From Candidatus Desulfacyla euxinica (GTDB taxonomy: Bacteria; Desulfobacterota; DSM-4660; Desulfatiglandales; Desulfatiglandaceae): 61,389 nucleotides of DNA. A program made the position numbers and the translations under genes. The notes below the pieces were generated by a model. It made no database searches. It was not told the DNA's origin and was given only the letters and a program-made list of their open reading frames with translations. Below are positions 25,834-50,068 of this stretch, one piece after another (positions within the stretch are counted from its first letter, which is position 1; each line of letters opens with the position of its first letter). The stretch covers positions 1-61,389 of the forward strand of contig JACNJD010000124.1 in the NCBI GenBank assembly GCA_014382715.1, read 5' to 3'.

Positions 25834-26547
25834 TTACGGTCTCCCTTTCTGGTTCCTTCTCATCTTTCTGGCATTTTCTTTCCATCCCTTTCTCTTTTTC
25901 CCCTTTGCCTTTCTGTAGCGATCCGGGTCTCTTGAAGGATCTAAGGTAAACGTCCCCGGCGTGGGGGTCGGCAGGCTTTTCGCAGTCGTCTCTGTTGGTT
26001 TGTCCTTTTCTTTTTTGCGCTCTAACATCTCCTTAGGCACTGGAGGTCCGGCAATAAACCGGGACTGAATCTCGGGGCTCAGGAATAGATCCCCGAACGA
26101 ATAAAAGAAGATCCGCTTTTCTCTTGCCGCGTCGGCCAGGATCTCCAGCGCTACTGGGTTCTGATCGCGTCTTCGCCCGATCCTCAAGGCCATCTCTCTG
26201 ACCGGTGACAGGACTAAGAGCTTTTCCCCGGTCCCCTTCAGACCCCTTTCCATAACCACGGGATGGGCTTTTCGTCTTACGGCAGTAAACAGGATTTTTG
26301 GGACCTGGGCAGGGGTGTGTGGGTCCAGTTCCCACCTCCGTTCCACTGACCTGATACCTTCGTCCTCAGATTCAAAGAGCAATCTATCCTTCCCCAAGAG
26401 GACCTCATTGATATGGGATCGCCTTACATAACGCCATCCCTCCTCCTCATGAATAGCCTGCAGCAGCTCCTTAAAGGGAATAAAACCCTCAGAGTCAGGC
26501 ACCAGGCCGAACTCATCCGGTCTGTGGCCAAGCATATAGACGAGCAT
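25834..26547 (-). CDS. Tpt1/KptA-like protein with a divergent catalytic tetrad and a Lys/Arg-rich tail
   Basis: MLVYMLGHRPDEFGLVPDSEGFIPFKELL aligns to the KptA N-terminus. See the findings for the substituted residues. The last 60 aa or so are strongly basic. Confidence 0.55.
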   Translation of the reverse strand: MLVYMLGHRPDEFGLVPDSEGFIPFKELLQAIHEEEGWRYVRRSHINEVLLGKDRLLFESEDEGIRSVERRWELDPHTPAQVPKILFTAVRRKAHPVVMERGLKGTGEKLLVLSPVREMALRIGRRRDQNPVALEILADAAREKRIFFYSFGDLFLSPEIQSRFIAGPPVPKEMLERKKEKDKPTETTAKSLPTPTPGTFTLDPSRDPDRYRKAKGKKRKGWKENARKMRRNQKGRP

Positions 26548-26641: not shown

Positions 26642-27361
26642 TCAAAGTGCTGAGGCGATCTCCTCTGCTACCCTTTTTGCCGCTTCCTTAGGATCTTTAG
26701 CGTCACGGATGGGGCGGCCGATCACCACGTAGTCGGAGCCGTTTCTGACGGCGCCTGCGGGTGTTACGATCCTTTTCTGGTCGTCCTTGTCGACCACGGT
26801 CCAGGCCGGACGTATCCCGGGGGTTACTGCAACCATTTCAGGGCCGATCTCCCTTTTTACCGCGGCCACTTCAAGACCCGAGCATACCACACCCTGACAC
26901 CCTGCCTCTTTTGCCATGCGTGCCTTTAAGAGAACCAGTTCAGAAACATCATCCACATATTCCTGCGCGTATCCCAATCTCTTCAACTTTTCCTGGTTCA
27001 GGCTTGTCAAAACAGTGATTGCCAATATCTTCGTGCTGCCGGGGTTCTCCTCTGCAACACCTCTGAGGATTTCATCGCCCTCATCACAATGCACAGTCAC
27101 AAACTCCGGCCGATGAAGGCTCGCTGCCATAAAGGCACGCTGTACAGTGGCAGGGATATCGTGCAGCTTCAGGTCGAGAAATATCCCGGCTTCAGTCCTG
27201 TCGCGTATGGCATTGAGTATATCAGGTCCCTGGGCTATGAATAACTCAAGACCTACTTTGAAAAGTCCCACATGATCGTCGAGAGTCTCAACATAGGAGA
27301 GGGCCTGATCGTATGCAGGGAGATCTAAGGGAAAAATGATGTAGTCTTTTGGTTTTTTCAT
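26642..27361 (-). CDS. pyrF: Orotidine 5'-phosphate decarboxylase
   Basis: Contains IIFPLDLP..FKVGLELF..LDLKLHDIPATV. ATG 27361 (MKKPKDY), with AAGGG 6 nt upstream, is preferred over TTG 27382. Confidence 0.85.
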   Translation of the reverse strand: MKKPKDYIIFPLDLPAYDQALSYVETLDDHVGLFKVGLELFIAQGPDILNAIRDRTEAGIFLDLKLHDIPATVQRAFMAASLHRPEFVTVHCDEGDEILRGVAEENPGSTKILAITVLTSLNQEKLKRLGYAQEYVDDVSELVLLKARMAKEAGCQGVVCSGLEVAAVKREIGPEMVAVTPGIRPAWTVVDKDDQKRIVTPAGAVRNGSDYVVIGRPIRDAKDPKEAAKRVAEEIASAL

Positions 27362-27400
27362 GATATACCCTTTCAGATTCAAGTGTCAGTTACCACCTCA

Positions 27401-27442
27401 ACTTTAGTCACTTTAGTCACTTTAGCTCACTTTAGTCACTTA
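27401..27442 (-). repeat. gtgMctaaa-word array (reverse orientation)
   Basis: Forward sequence is actttagtcactttagtcactttagctcactttagtcactta. Confidence 0.8.
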
Positions 27443-27456
27443 ACCCGATAAATTAA

Positions 27457-27485
27457 TGGACATCCGTCGAAAAAGCAACTATATT
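27457..27485 (+). promoter_or_regulatory. Candidate sigma70-like promoter of tRNA-Thr copy 1
   Basis: TGGACA at 27457..27462, a 17-nt spacer, then TATATT at 27480..27485. The tRNA starts at 27505. Confidence 0.45.
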
Positions 27486-27504
27486 GCCCGCGATTCATCT
27501 TTGA

Positions 27505-27580
27505 GCCACCGTAGCTCAGTTGGTAGAGCACCTCACTCGTAATGAGGATGTCTGCGGTTCGACTCCGCACGGTGGCTCCA
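27505..27580 (+). tRNA. tRNA-Thr (anticodon CGU), copy 1, CCA encoded
   Basis: Folded by hand. Acceptor stem GCCACCG/CGGTGGC, D arm GCTC-AGTTGGTA-GAGC, anticodon arm CCTCA-CTCGTAA-TGAGG, T arm TGCGG-TTCGACT-CCGCA, discriminator T, then CCA. Confidence 0.9.
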
Positions 27581-27607
27581 GCAATATCAACAGGTTGCAT
27601 GTCTTTA

Positions 27608-27641
27608 TTGTCTGCGTATGTCTGTGTGTGTCTGCGGCTAA
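27608..27641 (+). repeat. 34-nt gtctg-word element, copy 2
   Basis: Sequence is ttgtctgcgtatgtctgtgtgtgtctgcggctaa. See 3012..3045. Confidence 0.7.
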
Positions 27642-27981
27642 AATATATATTTTCAATGGCAGCCATCAGTGACCAACTATTGATTCATTTTAAATGCCCC
27701 CAGCTCTTTTGGAGAAGAGTCTGCTTGTTTTCATTAGTTAGCAGATACCGTCGCCATTATAAGGCATTTCACAGGTGTGGGCAAAATCGGAAAAACAGCA
27801 AAGTCAATCCTGAAAGATGCTGATAGGGGTGTTTTGTTGATCTGAGAGTGCGTCTTCAAACCACACGTAAGCGGTAGTATTTCCGAATCGGGGCCGATCA
27901 ACACATTGTTGGCCCTGCACCCCTCTTTAAAGTAATGCTCTAATCAAGTTTTGATACCAATTACTGTTTGTTTTTGCATTT

Positions 27982-28023
27982 ATTGCGAAAAATATTGCAA
28001 TGATTGCAACGCCGTGGTATATA
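27982..28023 (+). promoter_or_regulatory. Candidate promoter with three ATTGCRA direct repeats
   Basis: TTGCAA at 27995..28000, a 17-nt spacer, then TATATA at 28018..28023. ATTGCGA occurs at 27982, and ATTGCAA at 27994 and 28003. Confidence 0.45.
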
Positions 28024-28065
28024 TTCTGCTCACTCTCAACCTAATTATGATTTACAGGGATCGAA

Positions 28066-28671
28066 ATGGCACAATCATTAACAGGTACGGAAATCCTCGA
28101 GCACTTGAAAATGCTCGCGGATTGGATCCGGGTCAAAAGTCCGGGTGAGCATTTTGAGTTGGTTGTGGTGGGAGGCGCGGCCATGGCGATCGAGGGTTTC
28201 AAAGACCAGACAAGAGATGTTGACGTCATTAGACCGCAGGTTTTGCCCGAGCCAATTATAAATGGCGTGACCCATATCGGCCGAATCAGACAGCTTAGTC
28301 CCGTTTGGCTCAATTCCGATGTCGCCAACATGCTTTTGAAAACGAAAAGTTCGAAGGGGTTGCCTTCATATTTCAATGAGATCTCTCGCAGCATTGAGGT
28401 GGGCAAGAATCTCAAAATCAGCCTGATCGGCAGACAGGCCCTGATATCCCTCAAATTGTATGCAGCCACGCCTTCTTACAGCAAGCACACCTCCGACATC
28501 AAGCGACTGCACGCCAATGCTGCGGAAATCACGAAGGCGGTCTCTTTTGTATTGGGCATCGACAGCACCGAAGTGAGAAAGGACGACTTGAATATCGTTT
28601 TGAAAGACCTGGGGTATGATTTCAATGACATCTGTAGCAAAATTGAAAGAGGAGACGGGCAGGATCGCTAA
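28066..28671 (+). CDS. Minimal nucleotidyltransferase-fold protein (AbiEii/DUF6036-like)
   Basis: ELVVVGGAAMAIEGFKDQTRDVDVI fits the hG[GS]-x(9-13)-DhDh pattern. It also has LISLKLYAA..TSDIKRL downstream. Confidence 0.55.
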   Translation: MAQSLTGTEILEHLKMLADWIRVKSPGEHFELVVVGGAAMAIEGFKDQTRDVDVIRPQVLPEPIINGVTHIGRIRQLSPVWLNSDVANMLLKTKSSKGLPSYFNEISRSIEVGKNLKISLIGRQALISLKLYAATPSYSKHTSDIKRLHANAAEITKAVSFVLGIDSTEVRKDDLNIVLKDLGYDFNDICSKIERGDGQDR

Positions 28672-28693
28672 GGTTGCGTGGGTGACGCTTGGT

Positions 28694-29419
28694 ATGCCAT
28701 TGAATTTCCAAATGATAAAGGAAAGGGTCGATGGCATCATCGACGTGGAGGCATTGATCATCGCCACCTTGCTGGTGATGGAAAGAGACCGTATCGCCAC
28801 CGACCTGCCTGCATGGATCAATCGATTTTCAAGCCTTATCAATTTTCAAAAGCTCAAAACCGTTTTCAGGAGACTGCCTGAGAAACACAGCGAATTGGTT
28901 GCCGCCAACCTGAACCAGGCCTATTTCACGAGCACGTCTAGGGCGTTCAGAAATGTTTTTGGCCTTAAGGCAAATGCTCTTGGAACTGCTGATGAAACCA
29001 TTTCACTGAGGACACGCAAAATCAACACGATCGAAAATGTGGCCCAGGCTTGTCTTATGATCAAGAACAGGCTCATTTACGGGACCGGATTTCGTGCCGA
29101 TTTGATAACTTTGACGCATATCGCGAACATCGGTATGAAAGGAACCGTGCTGGCAAGATTGATGAGTGCGGACAATTCAACTGTATCGCGTGTCTTGAAT
29201 GACTTAAAAGCCTCCCGGTTCTTGAATCAAGAAGGGGAGAGGGCAGGAGCTTTTGATCCGTATCCAGGAATGTTCATATCCGTAGCAACTGTATCGAATT
29301 TGTGCGAAATGATGGATGCCATGCAGTTTTCATTATATGACCTAAAAAAAGGGACTTTGGCAAACCTGAATCTCAGGCATGATGCCTTTGGCAGAAAAAT
29401 CTTGGAGAAGCTATTCTGA
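28694..29419 (+). CDS. Hypothetical protein with a C-terminal winged-helix-like segment
   Basis: Contains GTVLARLMSADNSTVSRVLNDLKASRFLNQEG. The start is either ATG 28694 or ATG 28616; the latter overlaps the upstream gene by 56 nt. Confidence 0.5.
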   Translation: MPLNFQMIKERVDGIIDVEALIIATLLVMERDRIATDLPAWINRFSSLINFQKLKTVFRRLPEKHSELVAANLNQAYFTSTSRAFRNVFGLKANALGTADETISLRTRKINTIENVAQACLMIKNRLIYGTGFRADLITLTHIANIGMKGTVLARLMSADNSTVSRVLNDLKASRFLNQEGERAGAFDPYPGMFISVATVSNLCEMMDAMQFSLYDLKKGTLANLNLRHDAFGRKILEKLF

Positions 29420-29518
29420 GTTATTTCTGTCTTTAAAACCCACATCCCTTAACCCTGCCTAATGCAGTTTGATAGCTACGTCCCCCTTTCCGTCCACAAT
29501 ACCTGCGGGGCTCATCAC

Positions 29519-29580
29519 GTTTAGGATTTAGGATTTTGGTCATTCGTATTTGTTTCGGATTTCGTGCTTCGTGCTTCGAA
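29519..29580 (+). repeat. tttaggat / ttcgtgc word array
   Basis: Sequence is gtttaggatttaggattttggtcattcgtatttgtttcggatttcgtgcttcgtgcttcgaa. It is related to 43714..43775 through shared ggtcat..cgtattt..ggatttt words. Confidence 0.65.
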
Positions 29581-29669
29581 TTTATAGGAAATCACATATG
29601 GAAATAATGCTCGTTACATCAGCACGTTATCAGTTTGAATGACGTGGCCCTGCCGCGATTCATCTTTGA

Positions 29670-29745
29670 GCCACCGTAGCTCAGTTGGTAGAGCACCTCA
29701 CTCGTAATGAGGATGTCTGCGGTTCGACTCCGCACGGTGGCTCCA
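29670..29745 (+). tRNA. tRNA-Thr (anticodon CGU), copy 2, identical to copy 1
   Basis: The 76 nt are identical to 27505..27580. The 17 nt upstream and 4 nt downstream are also identical. Confidence 0.9.
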
Positions 29746-29928
29746 GCAAAAAGCTAAACATTGAAATTATTTCAACTCGCATGTCCCCTATTGGACCTGT
29801 GTACATCTCGCCCCAACCCTGCCCAAATGGAAAAGCCTTGATTTCAGCAAAGAAACCATGTACTTTTCCCCAGTCACTGCCTTTAATTTGTAACATCTAT
29901 AAAGAGGGCTACCATGGACTGTAAACCA

Positions 29929-32082: not shown

Positions 32083-32153
32083 CAGCCCGCAAATTGAACA
32101 TAAGACAGGTTAATGAGAATCACGATACACCCATGATTGTGGAGGATATCAAA

Positions 32154-33341
32154 ATGTCTAGGAAAATGGTCATTAATTCCCTCTTTGCCCTTGCATTAAT
32201 GCTTTTCTTTGTTTGCTCCCATGCAACTGCAGCATCCACCGTGGTTTTCTATACGGAAGCGAGTTGTTCGTCATTGACTCTCGTTTTTGGTGGCGTAACT
32301 CATTCCAGCAAGATAAGGTGTGCTTATGGTGCAGGTTTTAGTGGGGTTGCCGCCGGTACATACAGTTGGAAGGTCACCGGTTGTGGTATGTCCTGGTCAG
32401 GCACAAAAACCGTAAACGGTACATCAAGGTATAATTATGTTCTTTGTCCTCCCTCTGGAGGGAGCTGTTGCTCTACGGGATATGGCACAGGGGGTACATT
32501 CCTATGTTCCCAGTGCAGCAGCGCTACGACCACCACAACCACCGCTGCCACAACTACCACAACAACCACTGCCGCTACCACAACAACCACTTCCGCTACT
32601 ACGACAACCACCATCCCTTCGTCCACTTCGGCATTATTTGTGAGAAACTCATCCGGTACTGAGGTGTTTGGTGTAAGTGCCGCTGGTGCTATCACCACTG
32701 CTTCCAGACTTTTTACCAATGGTGCATCAGCAGTGGGCGCTGCGCCGTTTGTTCTTGGTCAGGATATTGGTAACAGAGGAATTGTCATCACAGACAAAGC
32801 AGCGACAAATCCCAAAAGAATCTATTTCGGATGGAATACCGGAGCCTCTATGGAATATGTGGAAATCTTTGCCCTCCAGGAAGGTGTGGCATACAAAAAC
32901 TTTGTTCTTGCACCGTTTGGCGGCAACGTCGGCATCAACACCAGTAGCCCTGCATATCCTTTACACATTGGAAACAGTGCACATGTCACTACAGGAGGGG
33001 TTTGGACAAACGCATCCAGTGGAGAATACAAAACAGACGTTAAACAGCTTTCAGCAGAGAAGGCCATGGATGCTTTAACACAGCTCAAACCGGTTGAGTT
33101 TGCCTATAAAGCTGATTCGCAGGAAAAACATGTAGGATTCATTGCGGAAGACGCCCCTGACATCGTGGCAACAAAGGACAGGAAGGGTATGAGTCCTATG
33201 GACGTTGTTGCTGTCCTGACCAAGGTTGTGCAGGAACAACAAAAATTCATCCGAGAACAGAAAGAAATCGTACAGAAACAACATAAAACCATAAGCGAGT
33301 TGTCAGAGAGAGTAGCAGAACTAAAAAATAAATTAAAGTAA
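32154..33341 (+). CDS. Secreted protein A: Cys-rich head, Thr/Ala tract, fibre stalk, C-terminal S74-type intramolecular chaperone domain
   Basis: GGAGGA is 7 nt upstream of ATG 32154. Signal peptide ends ..CSHATAAS. The Thr tract lies at 32523..32613. The C-terminus reads SSGEYKTDVKQL..LKPVEFAYK..HVGFIAEDAPDIV..MDVVAVLTKVVQEQQ, as in tail-fibre/endosialidase chaperone domains. Confidence 0.8.
   Translation: MSRKMVINSLFALALMLFFVCSHATAASTVVFYTEASCSSLTLVFGGVTHSSKIRCAYGAGFSGVAAGTYSWKVTGCGMSWSGTKTVNGTSRYNYVLCPPSGGSCCSTGYGTGGTFLCSQCSSATTTTTTAATTTTTTTAATTTTTSATTTTTIPSSTSALFVRNSSGTEVFGVSAAGAITTASRLFTNGASAVGAAPFVLGQDIGNRGIVITDKAATNPKRIYFGWNTGASMEYVEIFALQEGVAYKNFVLAPFGGNVGINTSSPAYPLHIGNSAHVTTGGVWTNASSGEYKTDVKQLSAEKAMDALTQLKPVEFAYKADSQEKHVGFIAEDAPDIVATKDRKGMSPMDVVAVLTKVVQEQQKFIREQKEIVQKQHKTISELSERVAELKNKLK
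32590..33229 (+). repeat. Long direct repeat, copy A (partner at 48838..49477, offset 16248)
   Basis: 32739..33193 looks 100 percent identical to 48987..49441 (455 bp). There is one mismatch at 33194. The 150 bp before the block are about 88 percent identical by eye. Confidence 0.85.
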
Positions 33342-49613: not shown

Positions 49614-50068
49614 GACCGGATGAAGCCATCCAATGGTTAAGATTGAGCGGGAAAGTGTACCCCTTGGTTGCATAAATAAAATGGCAAAATGGGTTTAAAG
49701 ACTACAAATACAAGATATCCTTTCATTTTTTGTGTTTTACAGGAATCCTCTACAGGTGGGATCCTAAAAACAGGAAAAACAGCCATTTTATTTACCCTAC
49801 GGGAAAACCGAGGATACCCCATCTCCTGCGTTGTCGAGGGTTCGCGGTAAAGTACTACAGCTTCACCCTCGACGCCTAAGATCTGTGGCATCCTCGATTC
49901 TTGCAACGTTAGGGTGTAGTGTTTCACCACAGGATAAGGGGATCTCATTCTGTTGATCGACAAAGGGATTCTCAAGCAGTTATCGACTGCTGTTGTCAGA
50001 CCTGGTGACTGGGGAGGAGTTGAAACATTTGCAAGACCCGTCAAGAATTGTTAGTGGGGTTCAGGTCC

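Follow-up and report, generated by a model that had tools for sequence, protein, structure and literature searches.

Nucleotidyltransferase toxins of the MenT/AbiEii type are a current focus of research. They act on the acceptor ends of tRNAs, and several antitoxins that are unrelated to one another seem to work by inducing auto-phosphorylation of the toxin; a toxin-first gene order is a minority arrangement among such systems. In the two-gene operon MenAT1 of Mycobacterium tuberculosis (Rv0078B-Rv0078A), MenA1 is a small antitoxin encoded upstream of MenT1. The MenT1 structures (8AN4, 8AN5 and 8RR5) represent the closest solved relative of the enzyme considered here, closer than AbiEii proper. 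Residue roles in MenT1 have been described for T39, the phospho-acceptor, as well as for D41xD43, K137 and D152 (PMC11375011). The AbiE abortive-infection toxin–antitoxin system (AbiEi-AbiEii) has recently been re-read as type VII (bioRxiv 10.64898/2026.01.19.700257).

The module described below is likewise a two-gene operon and shares features with each of these systems. Like AbiE, it combines a nucleotidyltransferase as putative toxin with a winged-helix protein as putative antitoxin, its promoter repeats fit negative autoregulation, and it appears mobile and associated with defence genes. Like MntA-HepT, which is common in the same islands, it has the nucleotidyltransferase gene first and an overlapping second gene. 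The enzyme is closest to DUF6036 (PF19502, "nucleotidyltransferase of unknown function"), a family with no described function or partner: a literature search on DUF6036 and PDC-M02 found no paper. DUF6036-type proteins make up 556 representative clusters at E ≤ 1e-3.

Layout of the locus

The window, i.e. the whole 61,389-nt stretch of DNA that was analysed, carries the two-gene module between two identical tRNA-Thr genes, each lying within one of two exact copies of a 97-nt repeat. The features of the locus are as follows.

27488..27584, + strand: left copy of the 97-nt direct repeat, comprising tRNA-Thr(CGT) at 27505-27580, a 17-nt leader and a 4-nt trailer
27963..29466, + strand: conserved, apparently mobile module (operator/promoter, gene A, gene B, short tail), delimited by blastn against related loci
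27974..28009, unstranded: putative operator of conserved upstream boxes TTGCAT, TTGCGA, TTGCAA and TTGCAA, spaced 9, 12 and 9 nt
27995..28023, + strand: inferred sigma-70-type promoter, read by hand, with -35 TTGCAA (third box), a 17-nt spacer holding the fourth box, and -10 TATATA
28066..28671, + strand: gene A, 201 aa, MenT1/AbiEii-like (DUF6036-branch) nucleotidyltransferase and putative toxin, from its open reading frame and homology
28171-28176, 28210-28212 and 28216-28218, + strand: gene A key codons G36-G37, T49 and D51
28222-28224, 28453-28455 and 28495-28497, + strand: gene A key codons D53, K130 and D144
28616..29419, + strand: gene B, 267 aa (264 aa from 28625), putative antitoxin/autorepressor, from its open reading frame and homologues
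29090..29245, + strand: predicted winged helix-turn-helix of B (about residues 159-210), from weak HTH matches and the model
29653..29749, + strand: right copy of the 97-nt direct repeat, containing tRNA-Thr(CGT) at 29670-29745

The duplicated tRNAs that the first-pass annotation had placed around the cassette are thereby confirmed, and an Rfam search found nothing beyond these two. A promoter-like site returned by the promoter scan (TGGACA-17-TATATT, 27457-27485) ends 2 nt 5' of the left repeat. The GC content dips mildly at both ends of the cassette (0.41-0.45), with no sharp compositional boundary.

Comparison with related loci by blastn showed that, of the 2.1-kb spacer, no more than 27963-29466 recurs in other genomic contexts. 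Two loci (L028/L029) match exactly this interval at 93.5% identity in other surroundings, and the alignments of L001, L011, L013 and L014 start at 27971-27973 and end at 29317-29416. Modules at 93-99% identity were found in unrelated contexts, and judging from these alignments the 1.5-kb module moves between genomes. What had been described as a 2.1-kb unit at an integration hot spot is consequently narrowed to the shared module; neither the whole spacer as a unit nor the hot spot was borne out. A search across several ENA samples for an empty site showed that all contigs of the same organism carry the cassette, so that insertion is not directly demonstrable; short contigs of the same organism end at the 97-nt repeat. 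Flanking tRNAs as a trait of the family were ruled out, as L001-L029 contain no tRNA and L044-L123 only four unrelated ones. The tRNA-Thr duplication is peculiar to the source organism and does not belong to the module family.

Gene A

The open reading frame assigned to gene A exists as proposed, and so does the minimal nucleotidyltransferase motif, ELVVVGGAAMAIEGFKDQTRDVDVI: across 34 homologues G36, G37 and D51 are invariant and D53 is at least 90% conserved. In the later helix, compared previously with AbiEii/DUF6036-type enzymes, K130, A133 and H141 are invariant and D144 is at least 90% conserved. T49, D51, D53, K130 and D144 are each invariant or at least 90% conserved. No clear third carboxylate was found in A.

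DUF6036 is the only Pfam family matched by gene A itself, at 21.4 bits and thus under the gathering cut-off of 23.6, with the match confined to residues 15-56 and to the N-terminal third of the Pfam model. The same family is weakly matched by 33 of the 34 close homologues (E < 0.1), and several homologues carry a precomputed PF19502 match. Searches of A for AbiEii with Pfam or PADLOC gave nothing at E ≤ 1, nor did the 34 close homologues at E ≤ 0.1; NCBIfam and PADLOC as a whole returned no matches for A. Among 43 wider relatives, DUF6036 is found in 41 (best 2e-11) and AbiEii PF08843 in 20 (best 1e-7), with two weak PADLOC AbiEii matches in addition. By sequence, membership of A in AbiEii is thus transitive only, via the wider relatives. 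The PADLOC AbiEii profiles have lengths of about 310, against about 200 aa for A.

A profile including distant relatives of A reached MenT1 (8an4/8an5/8rr5) in the PDB with E 1.3e-5, aligning profile positions 13-162 with chain residues 7-167, i.e. nearly the full length of this short (about 195 aa) DUF1814-type nucleotidyltransferase. The link requires the widened profile, as the profile of close homologues matched no PDB sequence, and A and MenT1 share too little identity to be matched pairwise. In the profile alignment, T39, D41/D43, K137 and D152 of MenT1 correspond to T49, D51/D53, K130 and D144 of A. The catalytic core (GG, [ST]-x-D-x-D and a later K...D helix) is therefore present in A, including the position of the Thr that is auto-phosphorylated in MenT1. 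The AlphaFold model of A is mediocre (pLDDT 70.8, below 50 in the catalytic loop 36-58); in Foldseek, MenT1 was its sole nucleotidyltransferase-toxin match, and a non-significant one (8an5_A, E 1.7, probability 0.30, 86 columns). Taken together, the sequence comparisons make A a probable member of the DUF1814/AbiEii/MenT superfamily, as a divergent predicted nucleotidyltransferase of the DUF6036 branch.

Gene B

Genes A and B had been said to abut or overlap, and they overlap by 47-56 nt. The two values reflect two candidate starts of B, 28616 and 28625, the latter corresponding to the M-T/K-S start of most homologues. A third start at 28694, offered earlier alongside 28616, was rejected since the invariant residues W22 and G26 are encoded upstream of it, beyond the overlap with A.

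B has between 222 and 271 homologues that share 50-99% identity with it, and 48 columns are invariant; a profile search returned 271 clusters only, none of them named. No Pfam or NCBIfam family model matched B, PADLOC gave no matches, and AbiEi was found with neither Pfam nor PADLOC. The profile of close homologues had no match among PDB sequences. The AlphaFold model, again mediocre (pLDDT 62.5), is all-alpha and gave no significant fold match in Foldseek against the PDB.

The winged-helix-like segment noticed in the first reading of B is supported by both profile and model. Residues 162-206 give weak HTH_Crp_2/MarR/IclR matches, the HTH_Crp_2 match recurring in 31 of 32 homologues, and the model places helices at 159-167, 176-183 and 187-199, followed by strands that form a hairpin (residues 159-209 overall). 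The predicted recognition helix reads S-T-V-S-R-V-L-N-D-L, and S188, T189, S191, R192, D196 and L197 in this region are invariant. A further strongly conserved motif is NRLxYGTxFRAD. No histidine is invariant among the homologues; a HEPN-like B was accordingly rejected, there being no Rx4-6H motif. B is best described as a family without a Pfam or NCBIfam model that has a predicted internal winged helix and is not an AbiEi: it lacks the AbiEi domain, and its winged helix lies at 159-210 of 267 residues whereas that of AbiEi is N-terminal. The reversed layout relative to AbiE that was suggested for this pair is upheld on both counts, as B also comes after A in every locus examined. The difference to MenAT1 is similar. 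The partner here is a winged-helix protein of 264-267 aa, encoded downstream of and overlapping A, and is unrelated to MenA1.

Putative operator and promoter

The sequence upstream of A had been read as three ATTGCRA direct repeats. The repeats stand, their number does not: four TTGCRA/T boxes are present, at 27974-27979, 27983-27988, 27995-28000 and 28004-28009, and TTGCAA is its own reverse complement. In the 61-kb window the paired-box pattern occurs here only, except for one site with a single mismatch at 50020. The four-box layout upstream of A is kept in most related loci, and the proposed role of the repeats as the module's putative operator gains support from this conservation. Two full TTGCRA boxes only are found in L004, L015, L022 and L023, and the TGCA core of the boxes is kept even in L018, L020, L021, L024 and L027. 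Other subfamilies carry different inverted repeats at the equivalent upstream position.

The promoter cannot be called near-consensus as it was before, since TTGCAA-17-TATATA agrees with the consensus at 8 of 12 positions and lies under the scan threshold. The same geometry was read by hand in L001 (TTGCAA-17-TATATT), and the remaining loci have an A/T-rich, -10-like hexamer after the boxes. The putative operator boxes overlap the predicted promoter at its -35 element and spacer. No small-ORF partner was found upstream of A, where the 100 nt are taken up by the putative operator and promoter.

Conservation of the pair and genomic context

In the close clade, wherever a locus has enough sequence, A is followed and overlapped by B (about 25 loci, down to 30% identity), so that synteny of the A and B homologues, an earlier suggestion for checking the pair, proved strict. 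A wider enzyme family is related to that of A (hhalign 99.9%). Its 80 metagenome loci encode an overlapping partner of about 340 aa wherever the locus extends far enough, and this partner is homologous to B (hhalign 93.8%, E 1.7e-7). The translational overlap of the pair is kept over about 100 loci.

Neighbours in related loci include RelB/YafQ, PIN, MNT/HepT, AbiEii, integrase and methylase genes; toxin–antitoxin, defence or mobile genes thus lie beside the pair in other loci. Some loci of the wider family have the pair between hsdM and hsdS. A tight overlapping pair, nearly identical modules in unrelated contexts and a conserved putative operator are general traits of toxin–antitoxin modules, and all are found here.

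Assignment of roles

The core proposal of the first-pass annotation, a minimal AbiEii-like nucleotidyltransferase with a winged-helix protein in a toxin–antitoxin-like module of reversed order, is sustained by the DUF6036/AbiEii link to MenT1, by the strict synteny, by the conserved putative operator, which suits an autoregulated pair, and by the toxin–antitoxin, defence or mobile genes seen as neighbours elsewhere. We interpret the pair with moderate confidence as a toxin-first module of toxin–antitoxin type, in which A would be the toxin and B antitoxin and repressor. Which protein is harmful is indicated by gene decay. Frameshifts, deletions or interruptions affect the enzyme gene in seven loci (L022, L025, L026, L027, L087/L088 and L089) and the partner in none. 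This one-sided damage suggests that A is the toxin; the affected genes stem from metagenome bins, which may contain assembly errors. The same pattern weighs against swapped roles as in MntA-HepT (type VII), with A an antitoxin that chemically modifies and silences a toxic B, because loss of A beside an intact B would be harmful if B were toxic, and the converse was never seen. Enzyme-first order with an overlapping second gene is indeed that of MNT-HEPN pairs, one of which sits in L008, and B is all-alpha in its model with a strongly conserved NRLxYGTxFRAD. However, the matches of A lie with DUF6036, AbiEii and MenT1, not with the MntA families PF01909/PF18765, and B has a predicted DNA-binding winged helix and no HEPN motif. 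We regard such a swap as very unlikely.

A less improbable, albeit still unlikely, alternative is that the pair serves neither addiction nor defence, A being an accessory enzyme (a small-molecule/antibiotic or RNA-tailing nucleotidyltransferase) and B a ligand-responsive transcription factor. Resistance enzymes do occur among nucleotidyltransferase folds, B is large and its conserved regions outside the DNA-binding part might accommodate a ligand, every contig of the source organism carries the module, and PADLOC gives no match. Conversely, the closest characterised relatives are toxins, the module sits among toxin–antitoxin genes and inside type I R-M operons, and a regulator gene would not usually follow and overlap the enzyme gene that it controls; the strictly kept overlap and the confinement of decay to the enzyme gene also speak against it. 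The absence of a Pfam domain and the poor model might even suggest that the pairing and the repeats are artefacts of chance or annotation, the long reading frame of B being spurious and the TTGCAA boxes a random product of AT-rich sequence. Such an artefact is refuted by the homologues of B with their invariant columns, and by boxes that almost all related loci share in front of A and that are unique in 61 kb save for the one weaker site; its probability is negligible.

Proposed mechanism and implications

Within the toxin-first reading, A would block translation by attaching nucleotides to tRNAs at their 3' acceptor ends, by analogy with MenT1, MenT3 and AbiEii. B would be translated from the mRNA of A, its start lying inside the end of A, and would bind and neutralise the enzyme. 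This may involve induced auto-phosphorylation of the conserved Thr49 preceding the DxD motif, as for MenA1 and AbiEi. However, B has no relationship to MenA1 and is four times as large, hence its mode of action is not transferable from known antitoxins. B, or an A-B complex, would further bind the four TTGCAA boxes over the -35/spacer region via its winged helix and repress the operon. B probably neutralises A and represses the promoter of the pair. A recombination event would have placed the module between the two tRNA-Thr copies.

It is moderately probable that the module represents a variant of MenAT/AbiE-type toxin–antitoxin systems with a new antitoxin family, for which we infer toxicity, neutralisation and DNA binding. 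It would add a new and sizeable putative antitoxin family to the MenT/AbiEii superfamily, in inverted gene order, and a function hypothesis is gained for DUF6036-type proteins, as is a possible explanation of the two-gene inserts in type I R-M operons. As the phospho-acceptor Thr is conserved in A, the idea of universal auto-phosphorylation becomes directly testable with an unrelated partner. Similarly, the clean putative operator, with four palindromic boxes and an invariant recognition helix on the side of B, makes this an easy system for a study of conditional cooperativity.

A more far-reaching reading, possible but rather doubtful, is that the enzyme with its large partner, in the close and ~340-aa clades alike, constitutes a widespread, undescribed anti-phage abortive-infection system. 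The partner would then act as more than a simple antidote, namely as a sensor-regulator that holds a MenT-like, tRNA-modifying toxin inactive (perhaps through auto-phosphorylation of Thr49), represses the operon, and releases the toxin on a phage cue. This would account for the recurrent placement between hsdM and hsdS and in toxin–antitoxin islands.

Gene A and its superfamily

The two genes of the module were taken from the ORF list:
28066..28671, + strand, gene A, 201 aa
28616..29419, + strand, gene B, 267 aa

Gene A matched Pfam DUF6036 below threshold (21.4 bits, cut-off 23.6) and over residues 15–56 only, and PADLOC and NCBIfam searches with it gave no match. The sequence motifs quoted in the first-pass annotation were found in the window. 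None of the 231 homologues carries a protein name; for the few labelled by organism, the source is in most cases a Deltaproteobacteria or Desulfobacteraceae metagenome bin. Alignment of 34 homologues revealed G36, G37, D51, K130, A133 and H141 as invariant and D53 and D144 as conserved in at least 90%, with weak DUF6036 matches in 33 of the 34. An exhaustive search with the gene A profile returned 556 representative clusters at E ≤ 1e-3, and the full-length matches listed are mostly of ~170–230 aa, aligned across most of their length.

For a mixed alignment of A and its wider relatives, DUF6036 was matched by 41 of 43 members (best 2e-11) and AbiEii PF08843 by 20 (best 1e-7). The resulting profile matched the M. 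tuberculosis toxin MenT1 (8an4, 8an5, 8rr5) with an E-value of 1.3e-5, profile positions 13–162 covering chain residues 7–167. The conserved core of MenT1 comprises T39 (phospho-acceptor), D41xD43 (Mg2+), K137 (nucleotide phosphate) and D152 (PMC11375011); T39, D41, D43, K137 and D152 align with T49, D51, D53, K130 and D144 of gene A. The AlphaFold model is of moderate quality (pLDDT 70.8) with a disordered catalytic loop, and Foldseek found no significant match to it, the sole nucleotidyltransferase toxin being MenT1 at a weak E of 1.7. On sequence grounds, gene A falls, via the DUF6036 branch, within the DUF1814/AbiEii/MenT superfamily and has the size of MenT1.

Gene B and its pairing with gene A

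The homologues of gene B, 222–271 in number, are unnamed except for one automatic "CRP-like" label, and no Pfam domain was found among them; their alignment contains 48 invariant columns. The usual start is M-T/K-S, equivalent to 28625, and the invariant W22 and G26 lie past the overlap with A, yet upstream of 28694. This supports the long start as the real one and contradicts the start at 28694 considered in the first-pass annotation. The overlap with A amounts to 47–56 nt. The winged-helix-like segment noted earlier near the C-terminus is retained: 31 of 32 family members show weak HTH_Crp_2 matches at about residues 170–205, and the poor, all-alpha model (pLDDT 62.5) places three helices and a hairpin at 159–209. 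Foldseek with this model was uninformative. A HEPN-like B was ruled out because no histidine is invariant in the family alignment.

Synteny of A and B homologues, proposed as a check in the first-pass annotation, was borne out by tblastn and HMM censuses, in which B directly follows and overlaps A wherever the locus has room, down to 30% identity. The wider family was sampled via P0369, a relative of A (hhalign probability 99.9% against the A family), yielding 80 metagenome loci. An overlapping gene of ~340 aa follows the enzyme gene in all of these that extend far enough. The ~340-aa partners matched no Pfam or NCBIfam model, and their homology to B extends over 209 columns (hhalign 93.8%, E 1.7e-7). 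From these comparisons the window pair is assigned, as one compact clade, to a more extensive conserved module with the enzyme first and the winged-helix partner second.

The PADLOC candidate-system protein PDC-M05A was weakly matched by 14 of 24 ~340-aa partners (best 6.4e-5; partners of L044–L123, alignment A5) and PDC-M02B by one; the window's B gave no match of either type. PDC-M05A is the sole PADLOC lead for the module, and the match may be confined to the winged helix.

Operator and promoter

Four TTGCAA-type boxes, spaced 9, 12 and 9 nt, lie upstream of A:
27974–27979, box 1
27983–27988, box 2
27995–28000, box 3, candidate -35
28004–28009, box 4, inside the promoter spacer

The TTGCAA hexamer is self-palindromic. 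The ATTGCRA direct repeats described earlier are present, albeit as four boxes rather than three. A possible promoter combines box 3 as -35 with TATATA 17 nt downstream, but only 8 of 12 positions match and the promoter scan did not flag it, so that "near-consensus" was too strong a term. The layout recurs in most related loci, usually with four boxes; L004, L015, L022 and L023 have two full boxes, and the most distant loci (L018, L020, L021, L024, L027) keep the layout with a TGCA core. The recognition helix of B, S-T-V/I-S-R-I-L-x-D-L, is invariant across the same loci. Within the window the paired-box pattern occurs here only, bar one site with one mismatch at 50020. Taken together, these features would fit a putative autorepression by B.

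Other subfamilies have different inverted repeats at the equivalent position. In the wider family, the putative operator is an inverted repeat, AATGCTATTTAT...ATAAATAGCATT, ending at the enzyme start codon (upstream region of L046 2989–3594; also L093 and L102).

Gene decay and proposed mechanism

The enzyme gene is frameshifted in L022 and L025, carries internal deletions in L026 and L027, and contains in-frame stops in L087/L088 and L089, while the partner gene is intact in all loci where the contig permits. All six or seven independent disruptions fall in the enzyme gene although the partner is the longer target, which makes chance an unlikely explanation (rough estimate 0.4^6, ~0.004). With the caveat that the sequences come from metagenome assemblies, such one-sided decay would be anticipated for a toxic enzyme whose partner is the antidote. 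A reversal of these roles, as in MntA-HepT, is accordingly rated very unlikely.

We consider it moderately probable that A is a MenT-like toxin, which we infer to nucleotidylate tRNA 3' ends, and that B, translationally coupled to A, neutralises it and acts on the four boxes to repress the promoter. As T49 is conserved and both MenA1 and AbiEi induce auto-phosphorylation of their toxins (PMC11375011; bioRxiv 10.64898/2026.01.19.700257), neutralisation may proceed by induced phosphorylation of A. A non-toxin–antitoxin enzyme with a dedicated regulator we regard as unlikely, though less so than reversed roles. The probability that the pair is an artefact appears practically negligible.

The proposed module may work analogously to MenAT and AbiE. 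Still, it differs from AbiE in lacking AbiEi, in its reversed gene order and in having no direct AbiEii match, and from MenAT1 in lacking MenA1; PADLOC did not recognise it. The toxin superfamily is known, whereas the putative antitoxin family, gene order and operator are new. Diverse antitoxins were already expected for this toxin family, but the present one occurs widely, has no earlier description and can be tested directly.

The tRNA repeats and flanks

The module is flanked by the following features:
27505–27580, tRNA-Thr(CGT) copy 1 (ARAGORN, Rfam)
29670–29745, tRNA-Thr(CGT) copy 2 (ARAGORN, Rfam)
27488–27584 and 29653–29749, exact 97-nt direct repeat, one tRNA-Thr in each

Each repeat copy consists of the tRNA with a 17 nt leader and a 4 nt trailer, ending 4 nt past the encoded CCA. 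A promoter-like site, TGGACA-17-TATATT (10 of 12 matches), lies at 27457–27485, and the repeat begins 2 nt after its -10; copy 2 is without this promoter. Given these boundaries, the duplicated block would correspond roughly to the whole tRNA-Thr primary transcript. No recombinase gene is present in the 2.1 kb between the tRNA copies, and no tRNA flanks the other close-clade members. An empty site was not found among contigs of the window's organism, as all carry the cassette.

Between pyrF and the first tRNA, a 15-nt unit (TCACTTTAGTCACTT) occurs three times in overlapping copies (27399–27441), and a 43-nt match (93% identity) lies ~4 kb off in the same genome (L030 12103–12144). The right part of the spacer (29467–29652), which is not common to other loci, includes small tandem repeats at ~29520–29580 (aggattt twice, cgtgctt twice), and a terminator-like hairpin at 29643–29657 reaches into repeat copy 2. 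Next to pyrF, just upstream of tRNA-Thr, lies a gene resembling RNA 2'-phosphotransferases (Pfam PTS_2-RNA, KptA/Tpt1 type; 25834–26547 and 26642–27382, both - strand). Downstream, some 2.5 kb past the cassette, a gene at 32094–33341 (+ strand) encodes a Peptidase_S74 domain (intramolecular chaperone, phage tail-spike or endosialidase type), followed by glycosyltransferase genes.

Genomic neighbours elsewhere

DNA likeness to other contexts is confined to 27963–29466. L028/L029 match the window module (93.5% identity), and GerE regulators and PIN/MazE pairs are present in that locus. Elsewhere, Lcl_C genes adjoin a B protein that shares 99% identity with that of the window. Among the neighbours in other loci are YafQ/RelB pairs, PIN, MNT/HepT, an AbiEii-like gene, a DNA methylase, an integrase and a transposase. 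Wider-family pairs lie between hsdM and hsdS of type I restriction-modification operons in L062, L081, L082 and L097 (e.g. L081 1457–5857). In L046 the pair adjoins a tyrosine integrase, and the 344-aa upstream ORF of this locus is also found in L047 and L049–L051. In L004 (11922–12670), a separate 156-aa AbiEii/DUF6036-like gene lies ~3 kb downstream of the A-B pair, preceded by a 73-aa ORF in the conventional antitoxin-first layout; both layouts thus coexist in one island.
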